Shown in pieces: positions 1,176-18,564 of a stretch of DNA of 64,000 nucleotides. The stretch covers positions 2,112,001-2,176,000 of the forward strand of contig OZ241867.1 in NCBI GenBank assembly GCA_965203175.1. Reading direction: 5' to 3'. A program made the translations under genes and the position numbers. Below the pieces are notes generated by a model. It saw nothing but the letters and a program-made list of their open reading frames with translations. It was not told the DNA's origin and searched no databases. Positions within the stretch are counted from its first letter, which is position 1. Each line of letters begins with the position of its first letter. The DNA comes from Candidatus Latescibacterota bacterium (GTDB taxonomy: Bacteria > Latescibacterota > UBA2968 > UBA8231).

Positions 1176-1299
1176 TAGGACTTTTCTAGCCGCGTCGGTT
1201 TATTTTTTACGATCCTTGTAGCGGCGGCCCCGATCTTCGACGCGGCGCTCGCGCACTAATTCCATTACCGGGACGCTGTAGCCGCAACTAGTGCCGGTC
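1176..1299 (-). pseudogene. Remnant: 20-bp linker plus 3' end of the pyridoxamine-phosphate-oxidase-family gene
   Basis: 1188-1299 aligns to 17285-17396 with 7 mismatches in 112 bp; 1176-1195 matches 3211-3230 and 14310-14329. Confidence 0.9.
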
Positions 1300-2404
1300 C
1301 CCCTCCCAGAGCCCGCCGCAGGAAATCCACCCCGCGCGGGATGGCACCTCTCAGTGAGAAGATCTGGTGTCCGCCTCCCTCGTAGATGAACGCCTCGAAT
1401 TCGGGAGGCTCACGTCCCAGCGCTTCCATGGTCCGGATCAGGGAATGAGCTTGGCTGACGGCGACGGTTCCGTCAGCGTCGCCGTGGTGGAGCTGGACCG
1501 CGGGCAGGTCCTCGGCGAACAGAACCGAGGAGCGGCGCACCAGCTCGAGGCGAACTTTTGCGAGGTCAACTTTACCTCTCATGTAGGGCTGAATGAAGGT
1601 AGTATCGATGTGGGCGACCCCGGGCAGGTCACGCGGAGAGCCCATGGCCGCGTCCCGCGCAATCTCCCGCACCCAGTCGTCGAAGAAGTCGGTGGGCCCG
1701 AACAAGGCCACAATGTTCTCGATGCGCTCGTCGCGGATTCCGGCCAGCAGGGCAACGCCTGCTCCTCGGCTGCCACCGACGATACTCAGGCCTTCGATTC
1801 TCGCCTGCGGCGTTATCTCCAATGCAACGTTGAGGAGCGCTAAGGCGTCGTCCACGTCGTAGTCCCAGTGACCGCCGGTGCCGGTCGAAACCCACTCCTG
1901 GTTCTCGTACTCGAGCGGTTCGCTGCGAAAGGACGGGATCACATAGACAAAATTGTCGCGCAGTTCGCCGAGGGCGAAGATCACGAGGGCGATTTCATCC
2001 ACCTCAACGCCGCTGTCGCCTCCGTGCAGGTACATCAGGATGGGCAAGCTGCCCGGAGCCGCGGAGTCGGGGGCGAGGATCGCTCCGTAGTGGAGTGCCT
2101 CCCCCACTCTGTGGGACACGATGCGCAGGGTTGCCGGGGTCTCGCTTAGAGGATACGACTCGGTGAGTTCGATGGTCGCCTCGGCCGCGGAAATGTCGCG
2201 CCGGGCCCAATCGGCGCGGACGGCTTCCACCTCGGCTGCGGTCGGAGGCGCGAAGAGGTCGTCGAGTTTGGCCTCTAGGTCGATCGCGTCGGCAGCGGGC
2301 TCCACCGGATCGCCGGCCTGGTCGCATCCCGCCACCAGCCCAAGCAGCAGCACAGCCGGCAATAGCCCGCGCCCGCGTCGAATGTCCAGACCACCTGTCT
2401 TCAA
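1265..2404 (-). CDS. Lipoprotein alpha/beta hydrolase (S9 peptidase-like)
   Basis: Lipobox LVAGC; YLHGG, nucleophile GGSRG, HGDADGTV, GGGH; AGGAG upstream of TTG start. Confidence 0.8.
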   Translation of the reverse strand: MKTGGLDIRRGRGLLPAVLLLGLVAGCDQAGDPVEPAADAIDLEAKLDDLFAPPTAAEVEAVRADWARRDISAAEATIELTESYPLSETPATLRIVSHRVGEALHYGAILAPDSAAPGSLPILMYLHGGDSGVEVDEIALVIFALGELRDNFVYVIPSFRSEPLEYENQEWVSTGTGGHWDYDVDDALALLNVALEITPQARIEGLSIVGGSRGAGVALLAGIRDERIENIVALFGPTDFFDDWVREIARDAAMGSPRDLPGVAHIDTTFIQPYMRGKVDLAKVRLELVRRSSVLFAEDLPAVQLHHGDADGTVAVSQAHSLIRTMEALGREPPEFEAFIYEGGGHQIFSLRGAIPRGVDFLRRALGGGPALVAATASR

Positions 2405-2502
2405 GAGCGACTCCTAAGTTCTCTGATATCAATCTGCCCTAAGCATCCTAATATAAGCCTGTTGCACCCACGCACGGGGGAGTGAGCCGAGCGCGGATCC
2501 TA

Positions 2503-2537
2503 TTGCCAAGACTATTGGTATTATATACAATACCAAA
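2503..2537 (+). promoter_or_regulatory. Sigma70-like promoter with palindromic operator for the PIN TA pair (probably leaderless)
   Basis: TTGCCA-17 bp-TACAAT ending 7 nt before ATG 2538; inverted repeat TTGGTATT-N6-AATACCAA at 2515-2536. Confidence 0.7.
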
Positions 2538-2966
2538 ATGGAACTGGCTCAAGTTGTTTTGGATACCAACATCTTGGTCACAGCGCTTCGCTCTAAACGA
2601 GGCGCTTCCTTTAAGCTGATCTCTTTGATTGACAAGGGGCCATTTAAGGTCAATCTCTCGGTGTCGCTCGTCTTTCAATATGAAGAAATACTTCGACGCC
2701 AGAGACGCAGTTTACATGTTACCCAGGACGATATTGCAGATTTTCTTGATTATCTGTGTTCGGTGGCCAATTTGCATGAAATCTATTTCCTCTGGCGGCC
2801 GTACCTGCCGGATCCGCAGGATGATATGATTCTGGAATTGGCCGTCAATGCGGGCTGTAAGTATATCGTGACCTATAACAAACGGGACTTTCGAGGTGCG
2901 GAGACGTTTGGTATTGAGGTCGTAACGGCCAAAGAGTTTCTGGAAAGGATAGGAGCCTTATCATGA
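2538..2966 (+). CDS. PIN-domain toxin
   Basis: VVLDTNILV, EYEE-like QYEE, DPQDDMILELA, IVTYNKRDF. Confidence 0.9.
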   Translation: MELAQVVLDTNILVTALRSKRGASFKLISLIDKGPFKVNLSVSLVFQYEEILRRQRRSLHVTQDDIADFLDYLCSVANLHEIYFLWRPYLPDPQDDMILELAVNAGCKYIVTYNKRDFRGAETFGIEVVTAKEFLERIGALS

Positions 2967-3199
2967 GTACGCTGAGCGTTCGATTGCCCGACTCACTACA
3001 TAAGCGAGTCAAGCAGATGGCAGAAGGAGAAGGGGTTTCAATGAATCAGTTCATCACCTTGGCAGTGACGGAGAAGGTATCGGCGCTGATGACAGTTGAG
3101 TATCTCGAAGAGCGTGCTAAGCGAGGTAGTCGCCAGAAGTTTGAAGCTGTTTTGGCAAACGTGCCGGACGTAGAGCCGGAAGTACATGATCGGTTATAA
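2963..3199 (+). CDS. Ribbon-helix-helix antitoxin (HicB-like RHH)
   Basis: STLSVRLPDSLH...EGVSMNQFI; ATGA overlap with the toxin. Confidence 0.85.
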   Translation: MSTLSVRLPDSLHKRVKQMAEGEGVSMNQFITLAVTEKVSALMTVEYLEERAKRGSRQKFEAVLANVPDVEPEVHDRL

Positions 3200-3259
3200 T
3201 CAGCCCTAACTAGGACTTTCCCTGCCGCGTATCGCAAGCGCCAAAGCCAGGGAGCAGCT

Positions 3260-4723
3260 ATGGGAAGTGAAAAATTGTTTACAACGGCACCCTCACCTGA
3301 AAGCTCGGGAATACCTTCGCGGGCGATTCTGAATTTTCTGCAGCGGATCGACGCCGAGCGAATCTGCATGCACGGGTTCCTGCTGGTGCGTCACAACAGA
3401 ATTGCGGCTGAGGGATACTGGGCCCCGTGGACGGCGGAACGCATGCACCGGATCTATTCGGTCAGCAAGAGCTTGGTCGCGTTGGCGGTCGGGATGATGA
3501 TCGACGAAGGCCGGCTCACCCTCGACGATCAGGTCGCCGAATACTTCCCGGACAAACTGCCGCAAGAACTTCATCCGTGGCTTGCCGCCTCGACCGTCCG
3601 GGATCTCCTGACGATGACGACTCCCCATTCGACAACCTCTTATACGCGCGACGATCCGGACTGGGTTTGGACCTTTTTCAACCGGACCCCCTCGCATCCT
3701 CCCGGAACGATCTTTTCGTACGACACTGCGGCAACCGTGGTGCTCACGGCCACGGTCGAACGGCTTGCTGGCATGCCCTTTCTGGATTACATGCGACCGC
3801 GATTTCTGGAGCGGATCGGATTCTCCGCTGACGCATGGTGCATCCGCACGCCCGAGGGTGTGTCGTGGGGCGGATCGGGAGTCATCTGTAGGCTTCGCGA
3901 TATAGCCAGAGTCGCACTCGTCTGTATGAATGGCGGCATGTGGGGCGATGAACGGGTCCTCCCGGAGGCGTACGTGCGCGCCGCGACCTCCAGCCAGATC
4001 GACAACGCCATCCGGGGGAACTGCGGATATGGATATCAGATCTGGCGAGAAAAAGAGAACGGATTCTCCTTCCGCGGGATGGGCAGTCAGTACGCCGTCT
4101 GTTTTCCCGACAAAGAGTTTCTGTTCACATGCATCGCCGATACCCAGGGCGCTTCGGCCGGCAGCGACATTCCGGTCGTGATGCGCGAGGAACTCTACCC
4201 CCACCTAGCAGACGCGCCGCTTGCCGAAAACCGCGATGCCCACGCGGAGCTCTGCGATAAGATCGAGCGGCTGGCAGTCCTGCCGATCCCCGGGACCCCC
4301 GACGCAAGGGCGGCTTTGGCAGTCAACGGAGCCTGGTATGCTTTGGAAGACAACCCGATGGGGATCACGCGGATGCGCCTGTTATTCAAGGAGGATGAGG
4401 GCGTCTGGGAGTACACCAACGGTCAGGGCGACAATGTGCTGCGGTTCGGTATCGGGCGCGTGCTGTCCGGCAAGTTCCCTCAACGCAACTACTTCGGCGA
4501 ACAGATCGGCTCGGTCCCCGGCATTGAATATGATTGTCTGGCCTCGGCCGCGTGGATCGACGAGCAGACGCTCAACATGGAAGTCTATATCACGGATATT
4601 TACTTGGGTGGGCTCAGGGTATCTCTCGCCTTCAAGGGGGAGGAGATCGGCGTCTTTATGACGAAGCAAGCCGAGTGGTTCTTGGACGAATTCAATGGAT
4701 TCGCCGGAGGAAGGTGCCTCTAA
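3260..4723 (+). CDS. Serine hydrolase, beta-lactamase/NylB-like family
   Basis: SVSK (SxxK), PGTIFSYD, GYGYQIW. Confidence 0.85.
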   Translation: MGSEKLFTTAPSPESSGIPSRAILNFLQRIDAERICMHGFLLVRHNRIAAEGYWAPWTAERMHRIYSVSKSLVALAVGMMIDEGRLTLDDQVAEYFPDKLPQELHPWLAASTVRDLLTMTTPHSTTSYTRDDPDWVWTFFNRTPSHPPGTIFSYDTAATVVLTATVERLAGMPFLDYMRPRFLERIGFSADAWCIRTPEGVSWGGSGVICRLRDIARVALVCMNGGMWGDERVLPEAYVRAATSSQIDNAIRGNCGYGYQIWREKENGFSFRGMGSQYAVCFPDKEFLFTCIADTQGASAGSDIPVVMREELYPHLADAPLAENRDAHAELCDKIERLAVLPIPGTPDARAALAVNGAWYALEDNPMGITRMRLLFKEDEGVWEYTNGQGDNVLRFGIGRVLSGKFPQRNYFGEQIGSVPGIEYDCLASAAWIDEQTLNMEVYITDIYLGGLRVSLAFKGEEIGVFMTKQAEWFLDEFNGFAGGRCL

Positions 4724-4765
4724 CTTGGCGCGGCGACGTGGGCTAAGAGTTAAGGGATTCTTACT

Positions 4766-5713
4766 ATGGCAAGCCAATTTCTCATAGATGGTGACCTGTT
4801 CGTCGAAGTGGTGGACAACGACGACGGAGGAGGTTTCCCGCAGAAACGGGTTGATGAACTCTCTCAAGCGAACAGGAAAGGTCTTTTTGACGACATCGCT
4901 TTCCCTTTTGAACGGGCGAACGGTTACAATGGCGTGCGCCAACTCTACAGCCGCCGCGGCCCACAGGAGAACATTTTCCGGTCATCTTGGGCAAGCAGCC
5001 TCAATTTTGAGTTCATCTATGACCGGTCCGGCAAGTCCATGATTCCCCGTTGGCTTGGCGGCAAACTCGGAACTCCGCCAACGCCAAGCCAACTCACTCG
5101 GCTCGACGACAACTCGGTCCGATTGACGACCGCGATCCCCGAACCCCGTCGCATTGAGGTCAGCACGACCTTTACCCTCGTACCACCGCATTACATTGAT
5201 TTGGAAACCACCTGCGTTGCCCATCCCGACGCTTTTGCGGGGGATTGGCTAGGGCTATTTTGGGCGAGTTATATCCACAACCCCGAAGACAAGACCACCT
5301 ATTTCCTCGGCCGTCCAGACGAAAATAGCCCTGAACAATGGATTGCATCGCTAAGGGAACAGCCACTGAACGCGCGTGCCTTTGCCAGTGAAGCCGATGC
5401 GCTAGTCGAGGGTGAGCCCAATCCAGATGGCGGCTTGTTCCACAACATTCGCCCCAGCCGATATGTCTATCCGTTCTTTTACGGATGCTGGCGCAATATG
5501 ATGCTCGAACTGATGTTCAAAAGCACCGAATCCCTGCGATTCGCGATTCAGCCAACAGGCGGCGGACGGACAAATCCAGCGTGGGATTTTGCCATGCTCA
5601 TAAGGAATTGCCAACCGCTGACCCACTATACCTTCAGTGCCCGCGTGGTCTTCAAACCGTTTGTGAGCCGTGAAGACGCATGGGAAGAGTATCAGAACTG
5701 GGTGGATGATTAG
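4766..5713 (+). CDS. Hypothetical protein, possible galactose-mutarotase-like beta-sandwich
   Basis: 315-aa beta-rich ORF (GYNG, LNFEF, FWASYI, NPAWDF); fold is inference. Confidence 0.55.
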   Translation: MASQFLIDGDLFVEVVDNDDGGGFPQKRVDELSQANRKGLFDDIAFPFERANGYNGVRQLYSRRGPQENIFRSSWASSLNFEFIYDRSGKSMIPRWLGGKLGTPPTPSQLTRLDDNSVRLTTAIPEPRRIEVSTTFTLVPPHYIDLETTCVAHPDAFAGDWLGLFWASYIHNPEDKTTYFLGRPDENSPEQWIASLREQPLNARAFASEADALVEGEPNPDGGLFHNIRPSRYVYPFFYGCWRNMMLELMFKSTESLRFAIQPTGGGRTNPAWDFAMLIRNCQPLTHYTFSARVVFKPFVSREDAWEEYQNWVDD

Positions 5714-5724
5714 CCCCTAGCCTC

Positions 5725-6714
5725 CTACCGCATTTCCGCCAGCGAGACCGTCCTGTGTTCTTTGGCCGAAACTGAGACGGCTGCGGCGATTTCGACATCG
5801 AGCAGGGCATCTGTCGGGGGATTGCGGGCTTCGCTGCGGCCCTCTATGGCATCGAGAAAGGCGGCGGCCTGCCGGACGAATGGAGACGGCTCGTTTGCAA
5901 AAGTGAGCACCTCGGAATGGCCCCCGTGAAAAACGGTAATGGAATCCTCGCCGGGCAGGATTCCGCCTTCGGTGCAGACAAATCGCGGCTGTGGATCGGG
6001 CATGCCCTCCGGGCCGATATAACTGGCCGTGGCCGAGGCGAAGGTGCCGTTTTCAAATCCGATTAGGGCCCCGCATGTCTCCTCCACTACGCGACCGGGT
6101 GCCGTATTTCGCAGCCGATTGGCCATCGCGGACACGGTGGTCGGCTTGCCGAGGATCCAGCGGACGGCATTGAGATAGCAGTAACTCATGTGGGTCAGCG
6201 GCATCCCCCCACTCGCCTCTTGGTCGTAGTACCACCCGTCTGGGTCCGGGTTCCACAGAGCCATGGTCACGGCCATCACCGGTGCCCCCAGTTCTCCTCC
6301 CGCCACTAGGCGCTGGATCTTCTCCCAAGCAGGGTCGTAACGGCGCTGGAACCCGGCCTCGACAATCAGACTGTTTCGAGCCGCTATTTCTGCGATCTGG
6401 CGCCCATTCTCCACACTCGAAGCGAGACATCCGCCCACGAGGAGGTCGTAACCGGCATCCAATGCCCAAATGGAGACCTCATCTTGAACGCGATGCGGAA
6501 CCTCGATTAGGATCGCGTCTGGTCCGGCCTCCCCTAATCGGCGAAAATCATCGCAGAAAACGTCGCACCCCAACTCCGCCGCGCAGCTTTCAGCGCGCTG
6601 TGTGCGCCGCGCGGCGACGCCGCAGATTTCCGCGCGGCCGGTGTCCAGCAACGCCCTGCCCCGCGCCCGGGCCATGTTCCCGGCTCCCACAATCGCTATT
6701 CGCTGTTTCGGCAT
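5725..6714 (-). CDS. Gfo/Idh/MocA oxidoreductase
   Basis: IAIVGAGNMA, GFQRRYDP, SGG motif; start set at ATG 6714 after GGGAG. Confidence 0.85.
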   Translation of the reverse strand: MPKQRIAIVGAGNMARARGRALLDTGRAEICGVAARRTQRAESCAAELGCDVFCDDFRRLGEAGPDAILIEVPHRVQDEVSIWALDAGYDLLVGGCLASSVENGRQIAEIAARNSLIVEAGFQRRYDPAWEKIQRLVAGGELGAPVMAVTMALWNPDPDGWYYDQEASGGMPLTHMSYCYLNAVRWILGKPTTVSAMANRLRNTAPGRVVEETCGALIGFENGTFASATASYIGPEGMPDPQPRFVCTEGGILPGEDSITVFHGGHSEVLTFANEPSPFVRQAAAFLDAIEGRSEARNPPTDALLDVEIAAAVSVSAKEHRTVSLAEMR

Positions 6715-6889
6715 TGTGCTACTGCTCCCGTTTTTTGAGTTTAATGCCCGCTCTCGTAAAATATGAAACCCGCCGCAACTAGACCGTACTGGGAGTCTTG
6801 TCGACATGATCGGTTTCATGCAACATATGTAGTTGACAACTGATATAAAATCATTTAATTAATGATGTAAGATCGGTTGCAAACTGGTT

Positions 6890-8032
6890 ATGATCATGTT
6901 GTTCACGTATCGTACTTTAGACGATGAAGAGAAGCGGGTAGAAGAAGCTACGGCTCGCCTACGAGCCGATCTGCGTCGCTATGTCGCTACAGAGCCGCGC
7001 CGCTGGACGGGCTTGTTAGCCCGTATGACCCGGGCTCGCGCCCTTGCCGGATCCAATAGCATAGAAGGTATCAATGTGTCCGATGATGACGCCATCGCCG
7101 CGATTGATCGTGAAGATCCCGCCAACACGGACCGCGACACATGGCAGGCTGTCGTCGGCTACCGCGAAGCAATGGACTACATCCTCCAGCGCCGTCAGAG
7201 CCCGTCCTTCATGATCACCGAGGACGTGATCTTGGCCGTCCATTTCATGATCTGCCAGTCAGATTTGCAAGCAAATCCGGGTCAGTACCGCCCCGGATGG
7301 GTCGGTGTGCGAAACAGCAGGACCGGTGAATTGGTCCACGAGGGAGTGGATCGCGACCAATTAGAGCCCCTCATCCACGAGCTGCTAGACTACGTAAACA
7401 ACGATCAGGTCGATTCGGTCTTCCTACGCGCTGCCATGACACACCTGAACTTGGCGATGCTGCATCCATTTACGGATGGTAACGGGCGGACTGCCAGATG
7501 TATCCACACTGCGGTATTGGCCAGTGACGGGATCGTCGCGCCGACATTCTCTTCAATTGAAGAGTACATCGGCCACAATCAACAAAAATATTACGACGTA
7601 TTGGCCGAGGTCGGAGGGGGTGCATGGCAACCAGCGCGCGACGCTAAGCCGTGGATTCGCTTCTGCTTAACTGGTCACTATGTGCAAGCGCAAACACTGC
7701 TCCGTCGGATGCGAGAGTTGGAAAGGCTTTATGTAGAACTCTCGGATTTGGTAACTGCCAACGGATTACCCGACCGCATGGCCTTGGCCCTCATTCAGGC
7801 TGCCTTTGGCACTAGGGTGCGCAACTCGTCCTATCGGGTAAGCGCAGATGTGTCCAAGAATCTCGCTAGCCGTGATCTGAAGGTGCTCGTGGATACAGGA
7901 CTTCTAGTTTCCGAGGGCGAACGGCGTGGACGGTTCTACAGTGCGGCCCCCATTGTGGCGGAGATCCGTCAGAGGTTGCGGCTTCCCAAGAAGGTTGACG
8001 ATCCTTTTGCCGAGGGCGGGCCGGCTTCGTAG
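6890..8032 (+). CDS. Fic-family protein with C-terminal winged helix
   Basis: Canonical HPFTDGNGRTAR; SNSIEG inhibitory-like motif; ASRDLKVLV...GERRGRFY. Confidence 0.92.
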   Translation: MIMLFTYRTLDDEEKRVEEATARLRADLRRYVATEPRRWTGLLARMTRARALAGSNSIEGINVSDDDAIAAIDREDPANTDRDTWQAVVGYREAMDYILQRRQSPSFMITEDVILAVHFMICQSDLQANPGQYRPGWVGVRNSRTGELVHEGVDRDQLEPLIHELLDYVNNDQVDSVFLRAAMTHLNLAMLHPFTDGNGRTARCIHTAVLASDGIVAPTFSSIEEYIGHNQQKYYDVLAEVGGGAWQPARDAKPWIRFCLTGHYVQAQTLLRRMRELERLYVELSDLVTANGLPDRMALALIQAAFGTRVRNSSYRVSADVSKNLASRDLKVLVDTGLLVSEGERRGRFYSAAPIVAEIRQRLRLPKKVDDPFAEGGPAS

Positions 8033-8098
8033 AAGTAAAATAAGAGTAGGTGAATGCGTCAGGAAACCCGACTTCGGGGACAGTTCTAGGAGGAGAGC

Positions 8099-9079
8099 AT
8101 GGAATACGTCAAGTTCGGCCGTTCCGGCCTGAAGGTGTCGCGCCTGGCCTACGGCCTGGGCCTGCGCGGCCAAGAGGACGCTGGCGAGGCCGAGCGCGCC
8201 ATTGAGCGGGCCGTCGAGTTGGGGATCAACTTCATCGACTGCGCCAACATCTACGGCTTCGGGGATGTGTACGAGACCCGAGGCACATCGGAGCAGGTCC
8301 TGGCGCGCGTCCTCAAGCGGCATCGCGACGACCTCGTGGTCACCTCGAAGGTGGCCAGCCGCGTCGGCGACGGGCCCAACGATGCCGGTCTGTCGCGCTA
8401 TCACATCATGCGGGAGATCGACCGCACCTTGGCCCGCCTCGAGACGGATCACATCGATGTCTACATCTTGCACGTGTACGACGACGAGACCCCTCTCGAG
8501 GAGACGCTGCGCGCCATAGACGACGTGGTGCGCGCCGGCAAGACGCGCTACGTGGGCGTCTCCAACTTTCAGGCCTGGCAGGTGCTCAAGGCGCTGTGGA
8601 CGCAGGACCGCCTCGGGCTCGATCCCCTGCTCTGCATCCAGAATCCCTACAACCTCCTCAACCGGGAACTGGAGCGCGAGATGTGGCCGGCGCAGCGCGA
8701 CCAAGGCTTCGGGGTTATGACCTACAGCCCCTTGGGCGTGGGCCTGCTCTCTGGCGTGTATACTCCCGGAGAGTCGCCGCCGGATGGCACCCTTTACGCC
8801 ACCGGCCGCGTCGGCGACTTGGAGCAGGACCTCAACGAGGCGGGGCGTCGGACCTTGGAGATCCTGCGGCAGATCGCCGACGCCCACGGTCGCACCGTGG
8901 CGCAGACGGCGATCAACTGGGTGCTCTCCCACCCCGAGGTGACGGCGGCTATCACCGGCGGCGATACGGTGGCTCACATGGAGGAGAACGTCGGCGCTGT
9001 GGGCTGGTCGATCACGCCGGAGGACCGGACTCGTCTCGACGAGGCCTCGGCCGGCCAGGATCGCGTCTTGGATGACTGA
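8099..9079 (+). CDS. Aldo/keto reductase
   Basis: GRSGLKVS, GINFIDCANIYG, IDVYILH, YVGVSNF, YSPLG. Confidence 0.92.
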   Translation: MEYVKFGRSGLKVSRLAYGLGLRGQEDAGEAERAIERAVELGINFIDCANIYGFGDVYETRGTSEQVLARVLKRHRDDLVVTSKVASRVGDGPNDAGLSRYHIMREIDRTLARLETDHIDVYILHVYDDETPLEETLRAIDDVVRAGKTRYVGVSNFQAWQVLKALWTQDRLGLDPLLCIQNPYNLLNRELEREMWPAQRDQGFGVMTYSPLGVGLLSGVYTPGESPPDGTLYATGRVGDLEQDLNEAGRRTLEILRQIADAHGRTVAQTAINWVLSHPEVTAAITGGDTVAHMEENVGAVGWSITPEDRTRLDEASAGQDRVLDD

Positions 9080-9104
9080 CCGCCGTCCTCAGTAGGGTAC
9101 ATCA
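9076..9104 (+). repeat. 29-bp diverged direct repeat, copy 1 (copy 2 at 12084-12112)
   Basis: CTGACCGCCGTCCTCAGTAGGGTACATCA vs CTGACTGTCGCCCTCAGTAGGATACATCA, 25/29 identical. Confidence 0.8.
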
Positions 9105-10297: not shown

Positions 10298-10318
10298 TAT
10301 TAGGGGGAGAAGAGAAGA

Positions 10319-10933
10319 GTGCTCAATTGGCTTGAGAATATCACACCACCGGCCGTAATAATCTTCGTCGGTGTACTGATTAGTGCGTTTGGTGCGCTTT
10401 GGGCATCCCAGCGGCAGGCTAGCTTTGAACGAAATCTGCGAGAGAAGAGTGAGGAGATTGCCCGGCTGAATCGAGAGCTTGCGAACTCGGTGATCGGAGG
10501 AGACAGCTTCTGCTACTTGGTAGTTTCAAGTCCCGACCCAGTCACAAATACTGGCCTGCTCGTTGTAGTACACCAAGGAGAGCACAACCTCTACGATGTG
10601 CACGCTAGGATTGTCGACTTGGAGAAGTTTGATCAACTCAAGGGGAATCTATCGTTTGCCACGCTGAAGCAGACGGATACGAACATCTCAATCGGCAACC
10701 TCATCCCTTCTGCCCAGGTGTTACATCCATCATTCACGCTCGGCAATGGCAACACGCGGAGGTTCAACATCTTCTTTTCCGCCCGCAATGGGTTTTTCAC
10801 TCAACTCCTACGGTTCAAGAAGATCCATGGTAAATGGGTATATGCTACGAAGGTCGAGAGAGAAGATAAGGTGATCTACGAGAAGGTCGACGACGAGTTC
10901 CCTCGAACTGCTGAGGGCAACGTCGATTGGTAG
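10319..10933 (+). CDS. Hypothetical protein with N-terminal TM helix, coiled coil and beta domain
   Basis: AVIIFVGVLISAFGALW hydrophobic segment; purine-rich RBS. Confidence 0.7.
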   Translation: MLNWLENITPPAVIIFVGVLISAFGALWASQRQASFERNLREKSEEIARLNRELANSVIGGDSFCYLVVSSPDPVTNTGLLVVVHQGEHNLYDVHARIVDLEKFDQLKGNLSFATLKQTDTNISIGNLIPSAQVLHPSFTLGNGNTRRFNIFFSARNGFFTQLLRFKKIHGKWVYATKVEREDKVIYEKVDDEFPRTAEGNVDW

Positions 10934-11175
10934 GAAGATGCTCCACGTCCTCCTTCCTGAGAGATCGATGCATTGAGCCCATTCGCTACCGGGAGTCCTG
11001 TCGAAGGACCCGCAAGCGCTCAACCCTGGTCTGGGCTAAGCGCCTTGACAGAGAATCCCCCAAAGTCTCTTTATTTTTTATACGTTAAATTGCGCGCCGT
11101 CAGCAATAGGCGATTTGGCTAAAATGCTGCGGGACTGGGGTCAAGCGAACACAACGAAAGCACAGGTATAGCAAC

Positions 11176-12030
11176 ATGCCTCAATTCGACACACACGCGT
11201 ACATCAAAAGCCTCGGCGAGGCGCTGGTACTCACATATAGCAGCGCAGGACAGGCAACCACTCCTGGGCTAATAGGGCAGGCGAGGGAAAGGGCCATCAG
11301 GGCAAAACTTGAATCGATTCTGCCAGGTGGTGTCGGAGTAGGAACCGGATGCGTCATTGATAACGAAGGTAACGCATCAGGACAAATCGACGTGATTCTT
11401 TATGAACAACAATTCTGTCCAGTCTTCAATATATCGGATGACGTGAGTTACTATCCGTGTGAGGCGGTAATTGCTATTGGTTCGATAAAAAGCACGATTG
11501 GGAAAAAGGAATTAAGAGACATATACAGTAATGTGGCCTCTGCAAGGAGGTTGAAGAGATTCGCAAGACCAGCAAGGGACAATGAACCGCCACAAGGAAG
11601 AGTCCAAGTTCGCACGTATCTTGACAAGAACACGCGTCTCATAGATGGCAATTGGGAAACAATACAAAATTCATCCTCTTCTGCGCAGATCTATGCGTTT
11701 GGGCTTGGTCAGTCATTCGGTGCCAAGCCTGAGACTATGATGAAGCATACTATGGATCTATACGATCAGTTTCCGGCAGAGTTGAGGCCAAACGTGGTAT
11801 TGACTGTCGACCAGGAAATGCTGGCACCGGCAGCGGAGAGGCAAATGTTCTATAGCGCGCTGGGTTGTCCGGGGGTTACTTTCGTGAAACCCGAAAATAG
11901 CCTCGAATATCTGCTCGTATCGCTGTTTAGCATCATACAAAACGGAATAACGGCACCAGGATACGCATTCGAGAGGTACGTAGTGCCGCCTCCGATGACA
12001 AGGATTCACACGCGGATGCCATCAAACTGA
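11176..12030 (+). CDS. DUF6602-like PD-(D/E)XK-fold protein
   Basis: GQARE...VGTGCVID...SGQIDVILY...PCEAVIAIGSIKS. Confidence 0.7.
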   Translation: MPQFDTHAYIKSLGEALVLTYSSAGQATTPGLIGQARERAIRAKLESILPGGVGVGTGCVIDNEGNASGQIDVILYEQQFCPVFNISDDVSYYPCEAVIAIGSIKSTIGKKELRDIYSNVASARRLKRFARPARDNEPPQGRVQVRTYLDKNTRLIDGNWETIQNSSSSAQIYAFGLGQSFGAKPETMMKHTMDLYDQFPAELRPNVVLTVDQEMLAPAAERQMFYSALGCPGVTFVKPENSLEYLLVSLFSIIQNGITAPGYAFERYVVPPPMTRIHTRMPSN

Positions 12031-12083
12031 AGTCCTGGAGTAATGGAGAGAGGGCGGTCAAATCGGATGTGGCGCAATTACGT

Positions 12084-12112
12084 CTGACTGTCGCCCTCAG
12101 TAGGATACATCA
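12084..12112 (+). repeat. 29-bp diverged direct repeat, copy 2
   Basis: Matches 9076-9104 at 25/29. Confidence 0.8.
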
Positions 12113-12217
12113 ACTCTCAGGCGCGCACGCCGTAACCTCCGAGGGTCGGGGTACACGGCGCGGAGATCTTCATTCCACCTTTATTTTATGTTCCAAAAAA
12201 ACCCAAGGGAGACCAGC

Positions 12218-13018
12218 ATGCGACTCAAAGACAGGACAGCTATCGTCACCGGAGCCGGGGGCGGCATGGGCCTCGGCATATCGAAATGCCTGACGCGCGA
12301 AGGGGCGGCCATCGTGGCGACCGACATCGACGGCGACAGGGCGCAGGCCACCGCCGACCAGCTCGCGAGCGAAGGGGCCACCGCGGTCGCCATCACCGCG
12401 GACATAACGGATGAATCCGCCTGCCAGGACCTCGTCGCGCAGGCGATCGAGCGCTTCGGTGCCATCGATATCCTCGTCAACAACGCCGGCCACTTCGGCA
12501 CCATCGTCGGTGCCCCGTTCACCAACTTCACCGGCGAGGAGTGGGATAGCAACTACGACATACACGTCAAGGGCCCCTTTTTCCTCTGCAAGGCGATCGC
12601 CCCGCACATGATCGAGCGCCGCTACGGCAAGATCATCAACATCTCTTCTGCGGCCGCCAAACGCGACCCGACCTTCCTGCCGACCTACGCGGCCGCCAAG
12701 AACGCGATGCTCAGCCTGACGCGGCTGACCGCCAAGGACTTGGGGCCGCACAACATCACCGTAAACGCCGTATGCCCCGGGTTCGTGTGGACCAACTTCT
12801 GGCACACGCTGGCACCGAAGATCGCCGAGGTAGATCCCACCTATGCCGGCAAAAGCGCCCGCGAGGTGTTCGACCTGTTCATCGCCAACTCGACGCCGAT
12901 GCAGCGGGAACAGTCGCCTGAGGACATCGGCAACATGGTCGCCTTCCTCGCTTCCGAGGAGGCGCGCAACGTCACCGGCCAGACGATAAACGTCAGCGGC
13001 GGCATGGTCTTGGATTGA
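12218..13018 (+). CDS. Short-chain dehydrogenase/reductase
   Basis: TGAGGGMG, LVNNAG, YAAAK, NVTGQ; start ATG 12218 after GGGAG. Confidence 0.92.
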   Translation: MRLKDRTAIVTGAGGGMGLGISKCLTREGAAIVATDIDGDRAQATADQLASEGATAVAITADITDESACQDLVAQAIERFGAIDILVNNAGHFGTIVGAPFTNFTGEEWDSNYDIHVKGPFFLCKAIAPHMIERRYGKIINISSAAAKRDPTFLPTYAAAKNAMLSLTRLTAKDLGPHNITVNAVCPGFVWTNFWHTLAPKIAEVDPTYAGKSAREVFDLFIANSTPMQREQSPEDIGNMVAFLASEEARNVTGQTINVSGGMVLD

Positions 13019-13134
13019 ACGATAGTGTAGATGCAAATGCAGCTAGTGTGGATGAACTGACACAGAGGTGTCTGTCATTGCTGGGCTTAGAGCACGCTGG
13101 GCTGCGTCCTGAACGAGATCACGACGGTTACATA

Positions 13135-13499: not shown

Positions 13500-14312
13500 A
13501 TGGCAAAGACGGCTGAAATGATTGTCTGGGCTCAAGACTTATTTAGCTATAACATTATTCCGCCCTCTTTCTCCGTTTTTAGAGAACCAGATGTGAACAA
13601 GATGAAAGCTCGGAATATTTTCGTATTAACTTCTGTTGCCGACCTTCCTACTGTAAGTGAGTTTGTCCGCGATCCCAATCATCGAAACCATCTTCGAACC
13701 CTTTTCGTCCGCGAAGACAACAACGCTCAGTTTTTGCCACAGATGCTTTACGAGGCAGACCTCAAAAGCCGCCGACATATTCTTGTGTATTCAACTGAGG
13801 ATGTGCCAAAGCGCGTTCTAACAGCTTGGAGTCTTGGATGTCCCGATCAACTCATTGCCACGGCACGGGTCGTAGATGAGGAACTCTTTATCATGGCGTG
13901 TGATAACACCCTATTCAGAGTGGGTTTTGCAGAAATGCCCGCACTGGAGCGCATTCCAATCCAACAGCGTTCTTTATTTTCTATCTCCAGTGAAGGCAGT
14001 TATATACACTGGCCTGAGGTTGATGTACATATTGACCTAGATGCTGTTCGCTATCTAAAAGACGAAACATGGCGTGAGAAAAAGGATCGGGAAAAACTAA
14101 TGTACGACCTCCGATTCGGAGAGGCCGTTGCCGCATTGCGCAAGCAGTATGGGCTTAAGCAAGCCGAGATACGAGGGCTTTCTGAACGCCATGTGCGAAG
14201 GATCGAAAAGGGGGAACGGACAAAGATTGATACGCTAGCGATTTTGGCAAGAAGCCACGGATTGTCTCTTAAAGAGTATCTCGATGAAATTGCCGAAATG
14301 TTCTCCTCTTAG
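13500..14312 (+). CDS. DUF2442 plus XRE-HTH protein with N-terminal extension
   Basis: GSYIHWPEVDVHID (DUF2442); LRKQYGLKQAEI..LSERHVRRIEKG (HTH). Confidence 0.8.
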   Translation: MAKTAEMIVWAQDLFSYNIIPPSFSVFREPDVNKMKARNIFVLTSVADLPTVSEFVRDPNHRNHLRTLFVREDNNAQFLPQMLYEADLKSRRHILVYSTEDVPKRVLTAWSLGCPDQLIATARVVDEELFIMACDNTLFRVGFAEMPALERIPIQQRSLFSISSEGSYIHWPEVDVHIDLDAVRYLKDETWREKKDREKLMYDLRFGEAVAALRKQYGLKQAEIRGLSERHVRRIEKGERTKIDTLAILARSHGLSLKEYLDEIAEMFSS

Positions 14313-14457
14313 GACTTTTCTTGCCGCGTCGGTTTAATGTAGCGGCGGCCTCGATCTTCGACGCGGCGCTCGCGCATTAATTCCATTGCTGGGACGCCAT
14401 AGCCACAACTAGTGCCGGTTAGTTCGACGGCAACTTCGATTATTTAGCGTTTGGTAC

Positions 14458-15617
14458 GGCGTTGTTGCATGAAAGCTGTGTTCGGGTCTTGAAATGAGTC
14501 AGGCTCTTCGGTTAGATTGGTTCGTGGTTTCCAGCAAGAAACACGTTCCTTTCTTCCCAAAGAGCCTGTGATGAGCAAAGTATCTGGCAGTTCGCCCTCG
14601 GTCAAGTCGCAACCGGTGTATCGGGTTAAGAATTGGTCGTCGTATAATCGGGCGTTGGTGGCTCGTGGTAGCCTGACGGTGTGGCTGGACGATGGTCTGT
14701 GGAAGCAATGGTATGCTCAGGGGCCATCGCAACGGGGTGCTCAGTTTGTCTATTCGGATCCAGCGATTGAATGGATGTTGACGATGCGGGTGTTGCTTGG
14801 GTTGCCGTTGCGCCAGACGCAGGGGTTTATCCAATCGCTGTTGGACTTGATGGGGTTGGCCTTGGCCGTGCCGGACTACTCGACCTTGTCGCGTCGCCAA
14901 GGGGCCTTGGCGGTGGAGTTGCCGAAAAAGCAGCCCGATAGCCCGGCTAGCCCGATGCACTTGGTAGTGGATTCGACGGGTTTGAAAGTCTATGGCGAGG
15001 GCGAGAGGAAAGTCCGTCAACACGGCTGGACCAAACGGCGCACGTGGCGCAAACTGCATGTGGGGGTCAACGAGGCCACCGGCGAGGTGGTCGCGCAGAC
15101 GTTGACGTCCCATCGGATCGATGATGCCTCGCAGGTGGCCCCTCTGTTGACCCAAGTCGACGAGGCGGTGGAGGCGGTAGGCGGCGATGGGGCCTATGAC
15201 AAACAGAAGGTGTTCGACGCCTTGGCCACGCGGAGTGATCCCTCGATTCGGCCGATCATCGCACTGCGCAAAGACGCTACAATCCATCAGCATGGTAATT
15301 GTAAGGTCCCCCCGTTGGCGCGCGATGAAATCCTGCGGGCCATACGACGAAAGGGACGCAAGGAGTGGAAACAGGCCAGTGGCTATCATCGACGCTCGTT
15401 GGCCGAAACGCAAATCTATCGCTATAAGCACCTCATCGGCGACAAGCTGAAGGCGCGTAGCTGGATCAACCAACAGGTCGAAAGTCGCCTCGGCTGTGCC
15501 CTCCTCAATCGAATGATCCATGTGGGCAAACCCCAGTCGTATCGAGTAGAAAAAATCAACTGAACAAAAAACAACATTCGACAATGATGCCCCAGATATG
15601 ATTCATGCAACAACGCC
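14458..15617 (+). mobile_element. Complete IS5-family (IS903-group) insertion sequence, 1160 bp
   Basis: Perfect 16-bp TIRs GGCGTTGTTGCATGAA (14458-14473, 15602-15617); 9-bp TSD GTTTGGTAC (14449-14457, 15618-15626). Confidence 0.95.
14571..15563 (+). CDS. IS5/IS903-group DDE transposase
   Basis: YRVKNWSSYNRALVARGSLTVW, VDSTGLK, GDGAYD, YHRRSLAET. Confidence 0.95.
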   Translation: MSKVSGSSPSVKSQPVYRVKNWSSYNRALVARGSLTVWLDDGLWKQWYAQGPSQRGAQFVYSDPAIEWMLTMRVLLGLPLRQTQGFIQSLLDLMGLALAVPDYSTLSRRQGALAVELPKKQPDSPASPMHLVVDSTGLKVYGEGERKVRQHGWTKRRTWRKLHVGVNEATGEVVAQTLTSHRIDDASQVAPLLTQVDEAVEAVGGDGAYDKQKVFDALATRSDPSIRPIIALRKDATIHQHGNCKVPPLARDEILRAIRRKGRKEWKQASGYHRRSLAETQIYRYKHLIGDKLKARSWINQQVESRLGCALLNRMIHVGKPQSYRVEKIN

Positions 15618-15751
15618 GTTTGGTACACAGGTATTCGGACTCCGTTTGCAGGAGTAATGCGGCGTGGGGCGATTCTTCAAGCGGGGTGGCTGTGGCTTTG
15701 CCCTAGAGGCGGATGATACCGGCGTCCGCCTCCTTTCTCATCAGTTGAGGA

Positions 15752-16339
15752 TTGACCCCAATGACGATTCATCTAGCTGGTGACGGTATAAATTCACACT
15801 GGAATGTCCATCGTTCTTTGGAGATGCTCCAGGGTCTTCAGAACTCGGCCATGCTTCTCATTCGAGAACTGGATAATCATGTCAAACAGCGAGATACCGG
15901 TGGCGGAAAGCACCCAAATATGATGGGAAATGCTGTGGCTGCAATTGTCTTGACTTCCTATGCAGCAGAAATCGCCTTAAAGACATTGCATGCACAAACC
16001 AAGCCGAACGAGCCGCCACCCCGAGGTCACTATTTGCTAGACCTGTACGATGAGCTTGACCCCGCAACAAAATCAGAAGCGCAAGAGTTAATTTGCAAGT
16101 TGACGCCGATGGGTTCTCCAGAGTGGATAGGCAAGAATCCGGATATTCGAGCTTTGGTTAAACAAGGAAATTCCAATTTCTCGGACTGGAGATACCTTCC
16201 AGAAAAAGCCCATATGACCAGCGGTGTACCAAAGGTTCTCGTGAATGTAGTCCAAGTGCTGCAACACATCTGTCTCCAACAAGTGTTGCTCTCGCTGCCT
16301 AATTTGACTGATAGCTCAGGCAATCAAAAGCCGCAGTAG
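15752..16339 (+). CDS. HEPN-like domain protein
   Basis: YAAEIALKTL...PRGHYLLDLYDEL...FSDWRY pattern. Confidence 0.6.
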   Translation: MTPMTIHLAGDGINSHWNVHRSLEMLQGLQNSAMLLIRELDNHVKQRDTGGGKHPNMMGNAVAAIVLTSYAAEIALKTLHAQTKPNEPPPRGHYLLDLYDELDPATKSEAQELICKLTPMGSPEWIGKNPDIRALVKQGNSNFSDWRYLPEKAHMTSGVPKVLVNVVQVLQHICLQQVLLSLPNLTDSSGNQKPQ

Positions 16340-16502
16340 GTCGCCCGCGCACGCATCGACGCCAGCGGGGCACGCACGCTCTCACCCTTCGTAATAATGC
16401 ACCATCCTCTGCGGAACAGGCGTTCTGATCGCCTTGACAGAGAATTCCCGACCTTATACGTATACGTATAGTTTCCTGACGTTGCTGATAGATGAGGGCT
16501 TC

Positions 16503-17264
16503 ATGCTCCGATTGTCACCCCTAACCCAATACAAGGACAAGATGGGACGCGAGTTTAGCATGATCTTCGACCGCCTGAATAACGACTGGGCCTCTGCTCT
16601 CATTAGATACAAGGAGTTCCTAGAACTGTTCGGCAACACCGAGCGTGTAAAGCTCTTGAACGCGATCGGCGGCGGGTTGTTCTGGGATGTTCAGCAGATG
16701 TCCCGGAATGACTTGATATTGCGCTTGACGAGATTGACGGACCCTCCGCAGAGTGCCAGCAAGGACAACCTGACGGTCCAAAGACTGCCGGCCCTCTGCG
16801 ACGATCTGGAGCTACGGCAGGAAGTATGCCGTCTCGTTCAGAGAGCCGTCGACGCCGCGGGGTTTGCCCGCGACTGGCGAAATCGGTACATCAGTCATTC
16901 GGATCTCACTCGGGCAATAGACCCAAGCGCGGAGCCACTGGCCGAGGCTGATCTACAGAAGGTAAAAGCGGTACTGGATGCGGTACACGCCGTCCTGAAC
17001 ACGATTAGCGTGCGTATGCTCGGCAACGGGGGTATTCGAAACGACGTTATCATCACGCCCCGTGCGCGCGCCTTCCTAGCCTATGCTCGCCAGCTTGTTG
17101 ATGCTGTGCAGTACGTCGACTCCCTCATTGATCCGAGCGGCACCGTGTCCTTCTCCGACACAACAGCCGCAGCAACTTTCCTGCATAAGCTCGATCGCAG
17201 GCCAGAGCGGGAGGAGACGAAACAGGTCATCGAGTTACGGGAAGCAGCCCGAATGTTCAGATAG
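16503..17264 (+). CDS. HEPN AbiU2-like domain protein
   Basis: LRLTRLTDP..S..KDNLT and ARDWRNRYISHSD (RxxxxxH); start uncertain. Confidence 0.65.
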   Translation: MLRLSPLTQYKDKMGREFSMIFDRLNNDWASALIRYKEFLELFGNTERVKLLNAIGGGLFWDVQQMSRNDLILRLTRLTDPPQSASKDNLTVQRLPALCDDLELRQEVCRLVQRAVDAAGFARDWRNRYISHSDLTRAIDPSAEPLAEADLQKVKAVLDAVHAVLNTISVRMLGNGGIRNDVIITPRARAFLAYARQLVDAVQYVDSLIDPSGTVSFSDTTAAATFLHKLDRRPEREETKQVIELREAARMFR

Positions 17265-17296
17265 AGTGTATGGGCCGTGGCTCCAGCCGCGTCAAT

Positions 17297-17806
17297 TTAT
17301 CTTTTTCGATCCTTGTAGCGGCGGCCTCGGTCTTCGACGCGGCGCTCGCGCACTAATTCCATTACCGGGACGCCGTAGCCGCAACTAGTGCCGGTCAGTT
17401 CGACTTCCACTTCGATTACTTGGCGTTTGGTGCGCAGGTGTTCGGACTCCGTTTGCAGGAGCAAGGCGGCGTGAGGCGATTCTTCGAGCGGGGTGGCCGT
17501 GGCTTTGCCGTAGAGGCGGATGATGCCGGCGTCTTCTCCTTCAAAAGAACAGACCATAACGGTGATCGGGCCACCGGCTATCGCATGACGCGCTGTTTCG
17601 TTGCCGCTGCCCAAGTAGTCGAGGAAGGCCACGCGGTTGGGGTCAATCACATGTAGGGGTACGCCGCCCTTGGGCGAAAGGTTGATTGGGCCAATGCCTT
17701 CGGGACCGGGGGCGAGCGCGGGACCGGCGGAAGCGACGAAGAACAACGGCGCGTTGTGGATCAGCGCAGCTTGGTCGTCGGTGATGTAGGGATAGTAGGT
17801 GGCCAT
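17297..17806 (-). CDS. Pyridoxamine 5'-phosphate oxidase-family FMN-binding protein
   Basis: LFFVASA, NLSPKG, LDYLGSGNET, IIRLYG, TSCGYGVP; start ATG 17806. Confidence 0.88.
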   Translation of the reverse strand: MATYYPYITDDQAALIHNAPLFFVASAGPALAPGPEGIGPINLSPKGGVPLHVIDPNRVAFLDYLGSGNETARHAIAGGPITVMVCSFEGEDAGIIRLYGKATATPLEESPHAALLLQTESEHLRTKRQVIEVEVELTGTSCGYGVPVMELVRERRVEDRGRRYKDRKR

Positions 17807-17895
17807 AGGTTTTTTCCTCGTTGGGAGGCAGGTTTTGCGTTTGCAGCATGTCATGTGTTGGGCTGCATTGAAAATCCGTGGGAACTGATTTTCGC

Positions 17896-18156
17896 TCAAG
17901 CGGCTGCGTTCTGTTTGATCTCCCAACCGGGGAAGACCAAAACAGCCGGATGGCACTGCAAGGCTTGCGCTAGTACTTTGGCGCGTTCAACTCCAAGCTG
18001 TACGCGGTTATTTTCGATGGCTGAAATAGTAGATTGGGGAATGCCAGTACGTCGGGCCAGTTCATTCTGGCTAAACTCCTGAAGCTCGCGGATAATACGG
18101 ACGGACTCACCTACAGACACCTCAACCTGCTTCTTGGCACGGCGGTAATTTTTCAT
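17896..18156 (-). CDS. XRE-HTH antitoxin (HigA-like)
   Basis: SQNELARRTGIPQSTISAIEN; directly downstream of a RelE-like toxin. Confidence 0.85.
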   Translation of the reverse strand: MKNYRRAKKQVEVSVGESVRIIRELQEFSQNELARRTGIPQSTISAIENNRVQLGVERAKVLAQALQCHPAVLVFPGWEIKQNAAA

Positions 18157-18157
18157 T

Positions 18158-18439
18158 TCATGGTCTCCGATAGTCGTGTGGCGTCAGACTGACAACCTGT
18201 ACGAGGATTTCGCTGGCTTCAATTTTGTATATGACGCGATAGTGAAGGCCGAGCCGGGACGATCTGTATCCTTTCCATTGACCTCGCAGTGCTTCGTCGT
18301 GAAATCCTTTGATAAGCCTCAAGCCTTCGGGACCAGAGATCATAACGAGATCCTTCCACTTTTCGTAACGCTTGAGGATTTCTTGGGGCATGGATTGTAG
18401 CTGCTTATCCACCCTCCGGTGTTCGAAAATACTCCACAT
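18158..18439 (-). CDS. RelE/HigB/YoeB-like mRNA interferase toxin
   Basis: FHDEALRGQWKGYRSSRL..YRVIY...HDYR. Confidence 0.88.
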   Translation of the reverse strand: MWSIFEHRRVDKQLQSMPQEILKRYEKWKDLVMISGPEGLRLIKGFHDEALRGQWKGYRSSRLGLHYRVIYKIEASEILVQVVSLTPHDYRRP

Positions 18440-18474
18440 ACCATATAAAGTATAGATTGATTATGGTATGTCAA
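18437..18474 (-). promoter_or_regulatory. TA promoter/operator, probably leaderless
   Basis: Minus strand TTGACA-16 bp-TACTTT-7 nt-ATG; inverted repeat CATACCATA...TATGGTATG. Confidence 0.65.
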
Positions 18475-18500
18475 ATTCATGGGGACCGCCACTTTTATTC

Positions 18501-18564
18501 GGCAAACGCGCCGGACGTAGAGTTGGACAGTATATAATCGGTTACAGCCGTAAACAGGACGCGT
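18501..18564 (+). pseudogene. Remnant of the 3' end and flank of the RHH antitoxin gene (2963-3199)
   Basis: GGCAAACGCGCCGGACGTAGAG...ATCGGTTA..CAGCC..AGGAC aligns to 3154-3216. Confidence 0.8.

Follow-up and report, generated by a model that had tools for sequence, protein, structure and literature searches.

A variable hotspot of toxin–antitoxin and defence modules beside a conserved PNPOx-family gene in one Latescibacterota genus, with scars that point to homology-anchored illegitimate recombination

According to the portions of three reports that bear on the locus described here, a model of sequential displacement has been proposed for the effector–immunity arrays of Vibrio cholerae's type VI secretion system (T6SS) and for the orphan 3' ends of Rhs and contact-dependent inhibition (CDI) loci (PMC5361080), core defence hotspots lie between core genes in Pseudomonas aeruginosa (PMC10250203), and Photorhabdus has spots of toxin–antitoxin (TA) acquisition and erosion with high turnover and remnants, where acquisition is proposed to be mediated by mobile elements (PMC13617665). 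Here we analysed a stretch of 64,000 nucleotides (the window; positions 2,112,001 to 2,176,000 of contig OZ241867.1, assembly GCA_965203175.1) from a Candidatus Latescibacterota bacterium, in which a 20-nt sequence, TAGGACTTTTCCWGCCGCGT (the linker), recurs next to 3' ends of a PNPOx-family gene or of a ribbon-helix-helix (RHH) antitoxin gene in five copies that we call A to E (Table 1). A first-pass annotation of this DNA had taken the copies for the junctions of five serially captured cargoes in an integron-like array. We found that the region between a permease-like gene, located to the left of the window start, and the PNPOx-family gene with its adjacent ABC transporter genes is a variable hotspot in one Latescibacterota genus, and that its repeats are recombination scars of a kind already known, with no new integron-like capture system involved. 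Its turnover is probably best explained by homology-anchored illegitimate recombination (sequential displacement) combined with local duplication and deletion.

The locus shares with the T6SS and Rhs arrays and with homology-facilitated illegitimate recombination (HFIR), as the relevant sections of that literature describe them, one conserved anchor, a resident end left as an orphan stub, an ordered array and the lack of a dedicated recombinase. Unlike in the T6SS and Rhs arrays outlined there, however, the anchor is an ordinary housekeeping-type gene rather than a toxin gene, and the cargo consists of TA and defence modules. The locus differs from simple HFIR in that it also relocates modules together with flank sequence, and its host is an uncultivated member of the Latescibacterota. 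In common with the defence and TA hotspots, in so far as those reports outline them, it is a short stretch of chromosome in which TA and defence genes turn over at a high rate, remnants of genes persist and the distribution among relatives is patchy; in contrast to the Photorhabdus spots as summarized there, no mobile element is seen except single insertion sequence (IS) copies, and the flank duplications are a direct joining footprint. Like a chromosomal integron array, it holds small, promoter-poor modules, often TA, in one orientation and with a recurring short sequence between them, but it has no IntI, attI, folded attC or fixed crossover, and what recurs is a resident gene's flank.

The genome under study (G000) is a single contig of 6,579,469 bases. 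Within the window the linker is matched exactly at positions 1176, 3211 and 14310 and, read directly from the sequence, partially at 17282 (TCCAGCCGCGT) and 18555 (CAGGAC followed by GCGT, with 10 inner bases gone), as the first-pass annotation had reported. Its further statements, that PNPOx-family or antitoxin 3' ends are attached to the linker and that the copies share an orientation and differ in length and divergence, were borne out by blastn (word size 7) and by direct reading. Copy A (1185–1299) is 93.0% identical to 17282–17396 over 115 nt, two parts of copy C are 87.6% (14338–14466 versus 17314–17442) and 90.9% identical (15617–15726 versus 17424–17533), and copy E (18498–18560) is 79.1% identical to 3151–3216 over 67 nt, with a single orientation for all five copies. 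Allowing up to three substitutions, we found three linker matches in the window compared to 0.02 expected from shuffles, and only four in the whole genome, the fourth being a two-mismatch match inside an 884-aa open reading frame (ORF) 3.7 Mb away that looks like chance. This genome-wide count, which had been suggested as a check, rules out a dispersed repeat. Across the 185,579 species' genomes of the genome_contigs collection the exact 20-mer has 13 matches, eight of them in this locus context; the remaining five have only the 20-mer in common with the locus.

We then compared the locus across relatives from the same genus (labelled G001 to G046), using 40 kb around the PNPOx-family gene in each of ten complete genomes and less extensive segments of a further thirteen; the long-range synteny comparison covered 13 genomes, and the survey of the left neighbour of the intact gene covered 24. 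In the relatives the linker lies 3' of the PNPOx-family stop codon whichever gene stands to the left, and it is the ordinary native 3' flank of a genus-conserved gene rather than the cassette boundary for which it had been taken. The left neighbour is a DUF2442 gene with a helix-turn-helix (HTH) domain in ten of the 24 genomes, the SDR gene directly in three, RHH in two, AbiU2 in two (G000 and G003), a kinase-like gene in two, the promoter side of RelE in one, an HTH antitoxin in one and other genes in three. Breaks occur at at least five positions within the 30 nt below the stop codon (TAGGAC, TTCCAGCC, CGTCGG, CGGTTTA and TTTAC). As a caution for similar arrays, a recurring "linker" can be the mere flank of a conserved gene. 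The linker has been shortened twice, independently, by an internal deletion of 13 nt in G046 and by one of 10 nt in the copy that lies between the PNPOx-family gene and the ABC genes in G000, G002, G005, G011 and G019; its interior thus seems dispensable. The PNPOx-family protein of an outgroup genus is 65–68% identical; either TAGGAC or only TTCCAGCCGCGT may be ancestral.

The 172-aa protein encoded by the anchor gene is 89–96% identical in 18 of 24 other genus genomes searched. Its PNPOx assignment is weak in Pfam (PNPOx_N E 6e-4, 20.6 bits compared to a cut-off of 28.1) and is backed by the ESM Atlas, where the first match scores 0.96 and all 30 of 30 matches fall in PF01243-bearing clusters; searches against NCBIfam and PDB sequences gave no matches. 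When 31 genus genomes were searched with a 156-nt probe of the gene end, 24 proved to carry it, seven of these with extra partial copies (G000, G002, G003, G011, G013, G023 and G041). Extra copies on the gene's own contig all lie on its strand and within 17 kb, and the stubs measure approximately 22, 35, 53, 80, 96, 112 and 250 nt, plus full length.

The order of the locus is permease-like gene, S9 peptidase, beta-lactamase-like gene, GFO/IDH/MocA, Fic, aldo-keto reductase (AKR), SDR, a variable slot, the PNPOx-family gene, a second variable slot and the ABC genes, and the neighbourhood is syntenic in relatives at 90–95% identity. Of the 13 genomes compared, 11 carry at least the GFO/AKR/SDR part; the whole block is missing from G005 and G019, and the F4, AKR and SDR genes keep the same order in all 11 carriers except G023, where the block is rearranged. 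Because of this distribution, the approximately 11 kb between copies B and C are mostly backbone and not captured cargo, contrary to the earlier claim that unrelated cargo separates the copies. The real cargo consists of small modules: PIN-RHH, RelE-HTH, DUF4160/DUF2442, AbiU2 and a NucC-like nuclease. The idea of serial insertion thereby survives in part, with a flank duplicate and a restored gene at the slot below the PNPOx-family gene, but the five copies are not five captured cargoes. Alignment across related genomes, also proposed earlier, revealed empty and variant sites, such as the PIN-RHH slot 2538..3199, which is filled in G000, G003 and G022 but vacant in G012, G011, G010 and G002.

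From the repeats, their uniqueness, the conserved synteny, the variable breakpoints, the shared and unshared junctions and the lack of recombinases, we infer the recombination route and the order of events as follows. A new module would enter beside the PNPOx-family gene by homologous recombination on the PNPOx/ABC side and by illegitimate joining on the other, with 0–6 nt of microhomology. An illegitimate joint inside the resident 3' end would leave the old end as a dead stub while the incoming allele restored the gene, and repeated rounds would produce an ordered array by sequential displacement, a hotspot at which small TA and defence modules are gained, moved and eroded. Copies C and D would together represent one such event, with an IS insertion afterwards.

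Several findings agree with this route, which the first-pass annotation had named as one possibility and which fits best. The PNPOx-family gene and the two ABC genes form a conserved anchor, 90–95% identical in all 12–13 genomes compared; the other side is illegitimate, with 0–6 nt of microhomology at the four joints for which both parents can be read (6, 3, 2 and 0 nt); and a stub left beside a restored gene is found in G000 (copies C and D), G003, G011, G023 and G013. At the right joint of copy B (3230|3231), CCGCGT (6 nt) is shared with the empty site of G012 and G011, at that of copy E, CGT (3 nt) is shared with the native PNPOx/ABC spacer, and at that of copy A, TC (2 nt) is shared with the native peptidase flank of G001 and G023. 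The stub of copy C carries a 13-nt deletion near the stop codon and is 84–88% identical to every working copy, as would be expected of an old, unconstrained relic. The left flank of copy C runs on into the intact gene in G002, G012, G019 and G022, and the junction between AbiU2 and the PNPOx-family gene at copy D is common to G003 only among the genomes compared.

An IS5-family element lies inside the copy C stub. It has 16-nt inverted ends (repeat I9) and a 9-bp target duplication, GTTTGGTAC, at 14449–14457 and 15618–15626, and it is missing from otherwise identical contigs; two public sequencing runs (X21 and X22) yield contigs that join 14447 to 15617 without it. Its insertion therefore came later. 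Capture by a composite transposon or by IS elements was rejected, as this is a single IS5-family copy with a target duplication of its own and not two bracketing elements. The ends of the element match at least five further places in the genome, and its depth in public contigs is several-fold above that of its flanks.

One PIN-RHH module left copies A, B and E as older relics, each with 14–130 nt of former right flank. By blastn, PIN-RHH DNA occurs in G000 at this locus only, and all matches in relatives fall in this locus or on its contig except one in G007, where no PNPOx-family gene accompanies it. The module occupies at least six slots of the locus in constant orientation: left of the peptidase gene as a relic (slot 1; G000 and G023), between the peptidase and beta-lactamase-like genes (slot 2; G000, G003 and G022), after the beta-lactamase-like gene (slot 3; G010), beside the GFO gene (slot 4; one X21 contig), below the PNPOx-family gene (slot 5; G011, G013 and G023), and between the PNPOx-family and ABC genes as a relic (slot 6; G000, G002, G005, G011 and G019). 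To each new place the module would have taken 14–130 nt of its former right flank (the linker, sometimes with the PNPOx end), its movement being due to illegitimate joins or else to a local duplication and a subsequent deletion. Copy E has a longer, 163-nt counterpart relic in G019 and variants in G002, G005 and G011. The copy A stub, whose coding sense is on the minus strand, is 97.4% identical to the working gene end of G001; its right junction (1299|1300) is common to G002, G003, G011 and G041, and the native peptidase-gene flank at this site is kept in G001 and G023.

Related genomes show further arrangements of the same parts. The array of G023 reads, in order, DUF2442-HTH, linker, 53-nt stub, PIN-RHH, linker, 80-nt stub, two genes, HTH antitoxin and intact gene, and the 35-nt stub of G011 is the 53-nt type of G023 after a deletion between two GCGGCGGCC repeats. 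G003 has the AbiU2 junction of copy D, yet a 96-nt stub and different cargo to the left. The two full PNPOx-family copies of G013 share 90.7% identity across their final 279 nt, approximately the distance between species, and copy A is nearer to G001 (97.4%) than to its own genome's gene (93.0%), these being short segments and freely decaying stubs. The G013 copies (L027) stand in tandem approximately 0.85 kb apart with only an HTH antitoxin gene between them, the antitoxin start codon abutting the 3' end of the second copy. In the right-flank tree G000 is sister to G003 (support 98/99), yet the occurrences of RelE-HTH, PIN-RHH and the stubs cut across its clades, with G011 and G023 in different clades but sharing one insert edge; these patchy junction states fit exchange between lineages. 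The left-flank tree is mostly unresolved, with good support for one of eight inner branches. Other mobile elements occupy slots of this locus in relatives: in G010 (L014:2691-3836) a TnpB/IS605-type gene with a terminal hairpin lies beside the peptidase gene, and in G002 (L019:4560-5567) a DDE transposase with inverted ends lies between the peptidase and beta-lactamase-like genes.

Assembly error does not account for the repeat. Contigs from two further public runs, X19 and X20, which may come from the source sample, show 0 differences to the window across 15591–17339, and in contigs of X21 and X22 copy C is connected to copy D with no IS present; parts of the window that X21 and X22 leave uncovered (e.g., 9511–12046) were used only through contig joints that bridge them. 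Public contigs also show variants of the locus without RelE-HTH, the 315-aa gene or the 3-kb insert, as well as a G013-like joint. The samples do contain several related strains with differing arrangements, which would favor a chimeric assembly or collapsed strain variants as the source of false duplicates, but the copies are 79–93% identical and so not the same sequence, the genome is a single contig, the junctions are backed by contigs from four runs, and individual junctions are shared between G000 and separately assembled relatives. The probability of such an artefact is practically negligible.

Other element classes were weighed against the window's gene content. Its ORFs yield no tyrosine recombinase (PF00589), and the genome's four sites with this family are all more than 1.2 Mb distant; no serine recombinase was found in the genome, no tRNA in the window, and no integrase in the window or among 12 variable ORFs scanned from G001, G002, G010, G011 and G023. 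The only mobile-element genes among the remaining window ORFs are of the IS3 and IS5 families, in line with the earlier remark that two IS transposases are the only recombinases present. We also folded 81-nt stretches around three linker copies as DNA on both strands against 200 shuffles, without an attC covariance model; z-scores ranged from -0.85 to +1.24, and 34–185 of the 200 shuffles folded as well or better. An integron is ruled out, with no IntI beside the array, no folded attC and no fixed recombination point: the at least five break positions within 30 nt and the stubs of 22–250 nt with joints inside the gene do not suit a fixed crossover, and the proposed integron-like array was abandoned on these grounds. 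An integrase-type island is likewise disfavored, with no integrase at an insert end in the window or among the 12 ORFs scanned from relatives and a repeat length that varies from 22 nt to the full gene.

Against the homology-anchored route stand a number of points. No donor–recipient pair has been caught in the act, and because all compared genomes are species representatives 90–95% identical to one another, the events must be old and we infer their order. For copies A and B, no obvious homologous anchor exists where they now stand, and to account for copies A, B and E one must invoke either two illegitimate joints or a duplication plus a deletion. The joint between the HTH start codon and the PNPOx end in G013 and G023 has 0 nt of microhomology, the junction with the linker is at one and the same base (TAGGAC) for four unrelated left neighbours, and GCGT immediately precedes three of the right-hand joints; these shared edges are tidier than random illegitimate joining predicts. 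GC-rich microhomology accounts for two of the right-edge joints, and the sharp TAGGAC left edge is unexplained. Stub identities are too short for donor assignment. In the relevant parts of the two papers that treat HFIR, its demonstrations are limited to a few transformable species in culture and to conjugation in E. coli (PMC5361080, PMC3240628). Homologues of ComEC and DprA are present in the genome, and most control genomes have both too, so they lend the route weak support.

The tidy edges are what would be expected if the linker were the true recombination site of an unlinked or unknown enzyme and the modules were cassettes, integron-like without IntI or attC. A module followed by its own linker copy in G013 and G000, and the confinement of the linker to this genus, with eight of its 13 exact matches in the locus context, would suit that explanation as well. 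We nevertheless consider it very unlikely: other genomes break at other positions within the same 30 nt, from TTCCAGCC to TTTAC, the 22–250 nt stubs put joints deep inside the gene, no hairpin is formed, other loci of the genome hold no linker copies, the right-edge coincidences are explained by GC-rich microhomology, the nearest tyrosine recombinase is as distant as stated above, and no serine recombinase is found in the genome. There is similarly little chance that TAGGACTTTTCCWGCCGCGT is a preferred joining site with defined ends, acted on by an unlinked or unknown enzyme or by a sequence-specific break; were this true, a minimal att-like site would let Latescibacterota stack TA and defence cassettes with neither an integron integrase nor a folded attC. 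Next to an intact target gene, partial duplicates of its 3' end in direct orientation are a classic footprint of integrative elements, and the locus could accordingly be read as decayed islands, in which tyrosine-integrase elements inserted into the PNPOx-family 3' end, brought a replacement gene end and later lost their integrases. This is highly improbable given repeats of inconstant length, inserts as small as 0.7–1.5 kb, the lack of a tRNA in the window, and the lack of an integrase both there and among the 12 ORFs scanned from five relatives.

Purely internal rearrangement, by tandem duplications of locus segments and partial deletions with no DNA from other lineages, is in our judgement unlikely. 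AbiU2, two genes without a named family and a PDC-S54 protein of G023, which lie between stubs, duplicate nothing nearby, the two G013 copies are 9% apart, and G011 and G023 have identical insert edges despite belonging to different flank-tree clades. It would, however, readily explain why all copies share one orientation within 17 kb, why PIN-RHH is so nearly restricted to this locus and why G013 has a tandem pair of full genes, and copy A would need only a single joint (PNPOx end to peptidase end) and one deletion. Under homology-anchored illegitimate recombination with local duplication and deletion, which we prefer, the locus is a clear natural record of how a chromosome acquires, relocates and wears down TA and defence genes with no mobile-element machinery, in a phylum that is uncultivated and without genetics. 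As stubs of differing length survive in several related species, the order of events would be readable like layers, and the locus may serve as a test case for models of hotspot turnover, its value lying in the number of layers and their recurrence across the genus.

Table 1. Features of the locus in window coordinates, with family assignments and E-values where given.
Feature	Position	Strand	Description
Beta-helix protein	1-1146
Copy A	1162..1299		14-nt remnant of RHH antitoxin 3' flank (1162-1175), linker (1176-1195) and dead PNPOx-family 3' stub to 1299
S9-peptidase-like gene	1265..2404	-	Backbone family F8; Peptidase_S9 E 2.9e-4, below curated cut-off
PIN toxin	2538-2966	+	PIN_3 7.5e-21; TIGR00305 (NCBIfam search)
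RHH antitoxin	2963-3199	+	RHH/HicB 4.7e-09
Copy B	3211..3230	+	Exact linker, joined to upstream region of beta-lactamase-like gene
Beta-lactamase-like gene	3260-4723		Backbone (Pfam)
Variable 315-aa gene	4766-5713		No family named; interrupts backbone block 3260..9079
GFO/IDH/MocA	5725-6819	-	Backbone (Pfam)
Fic/SoFic	6890-8032		Backbone; Pfam; PADLOC SoFic 4.8e-52
Aldo-keto reductase (AKR)	8099-9079		Backbone (Pfam)
3-kb insert	9076..12112	+	Two genes without named family and the DUF6602 nuclease; genes span 9188-12030
DUF6602 NucC/PD-DExK-like nuclease	11176-12030	+	PADLOC PD_DExK 1.7e-30, NucC 4.4e-15
SDR gene	12188..13018	+	Backbone; adh_short 3.8e-56
Dead 3' stub of AAA_33 kinase-like gene	13024..13107	+	84 nt; 84.7% over 72 nt to G001 gene 3' end
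DUF4160	13220-13489	+	Pfam
DUF2442-HTH	13500-14312	+	Pfam; stop codon is the TAG of the linker
Copy C	14310..15735		Linker (14310-14329) and decayed PNPOx stub of ~237 nt (14330-14457, 15627-15735)
IS5-family element	14458..15617	+	1160 bp, inside copy C stub; transposase 14517-15563; DDE_Tnp_1_5 3.6e-37
195-aa gene	15752..16339	+	No family named; cargo of proposed C/D event
AbiU2 HEPN gene	16434..17264	+	Cargo of proposed C/D event; HEPN_AbiU2 8.5e-17
Copy D	17282..17815	-	Partial linker (17282-17292) and intact 172-aa PNPOx-family gene (17297-17815)
HTH antitoxin	17896-18156	-	HTH_3 1.5e-14
RelE/ParE-type toxin	18158-18439	-	RelE_StbE 1.8e-07
Copy E	18498..18564	+	RHH antitoxin 3' stub and shortened linker (18555-18564), joined to ABC transporter gene 3' flank
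Two ABC transporter genes	18585-22108	-

Similar scars occur elsewhere in the window, and in one place a dead stub has been put to use in a neighbouring gene. The last approximately 11 codons and the stop codon of the S9-peptidase-like gene are read from the PNPOx stub of copy A on the same strand (window 1265–1299), and the native peptidase 3' end, as in G001 and G023, is replaced in G000, so that the tail of this gene appears to consist of codons recruited from another gene's dead sequence. A second dead 3' end, that of the kinase-like gene below SDR, corresponds to a gene that neighbours the PNPOx-family gene in G001 (AAA_33 2.7e-07 for the G001 protein); SDR and the PNPOx-family gene stand directly tail-to-tail in G009, G010 and G021. 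The 3-kb insert is flanked by a 29-nt direct repeat (D11) of the AKR 3' flank (9076–9104 and 12084–12112, 86% identical) and is missing from relatives, and X21 and X22 contigs skip from 9104 to 12196. The same two runs skip the region of the 315-aa gene (4737 to 5724), and X19, X20 and X21 contigs skip that of RelE-HTH (17814 to 18598), a pair found at this slot in G000, G002 and G011 and at other slots in G005 and G019.

The window contains adjacent genes for a toxin and a DNA-binding antitoxin (PIN_3/RHH and RelE_StbE/HTH_3), predicted to be type II TA modules. Third-position G+C is 0.43–0.61 in cargo genes compared to 0.68–0.88 in most backbone genes, the exceptions being Fic on the backbone side (0.63) and AbiU2 on the cargo side (0.68). 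A promoter-like motif, TTGACAGAGRA followed 10–14 nt on by CTTTATTT, precedes three cargo genes (9105, 11045 and 16434); it also occurs at genome positions 2186295 and 6042809, and in relatives it precedes the beta-lactamase-like gene too. CTTGACAGAGAA occurs six times genome-wide compared to 0.45 expected. Approximately 90 nt upstream of AbiU2 (16340–16432) match the peptidase upstream region of G001 and G023, and promoters thus seem to travel with modules.

The genome is rich in TA modules, and further pairs lie elsewhere in the window, with an IS3 element beside a ParE-like toxin (23563–25074), HepT/MNT (29038–29692) and Phd/PIN (60913–61526). At 10–14 kb before the window start (genome approximately 2098000–2106000) are paralogous genes of approximately 800 aa in two to four tandem copies. 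Their copy number varies among relatives, and their C-terminal motifs look permease-like by eye only, no family search having been made. Long ankyrin-repeat genes lie in the same upstream region of G011 and G012.

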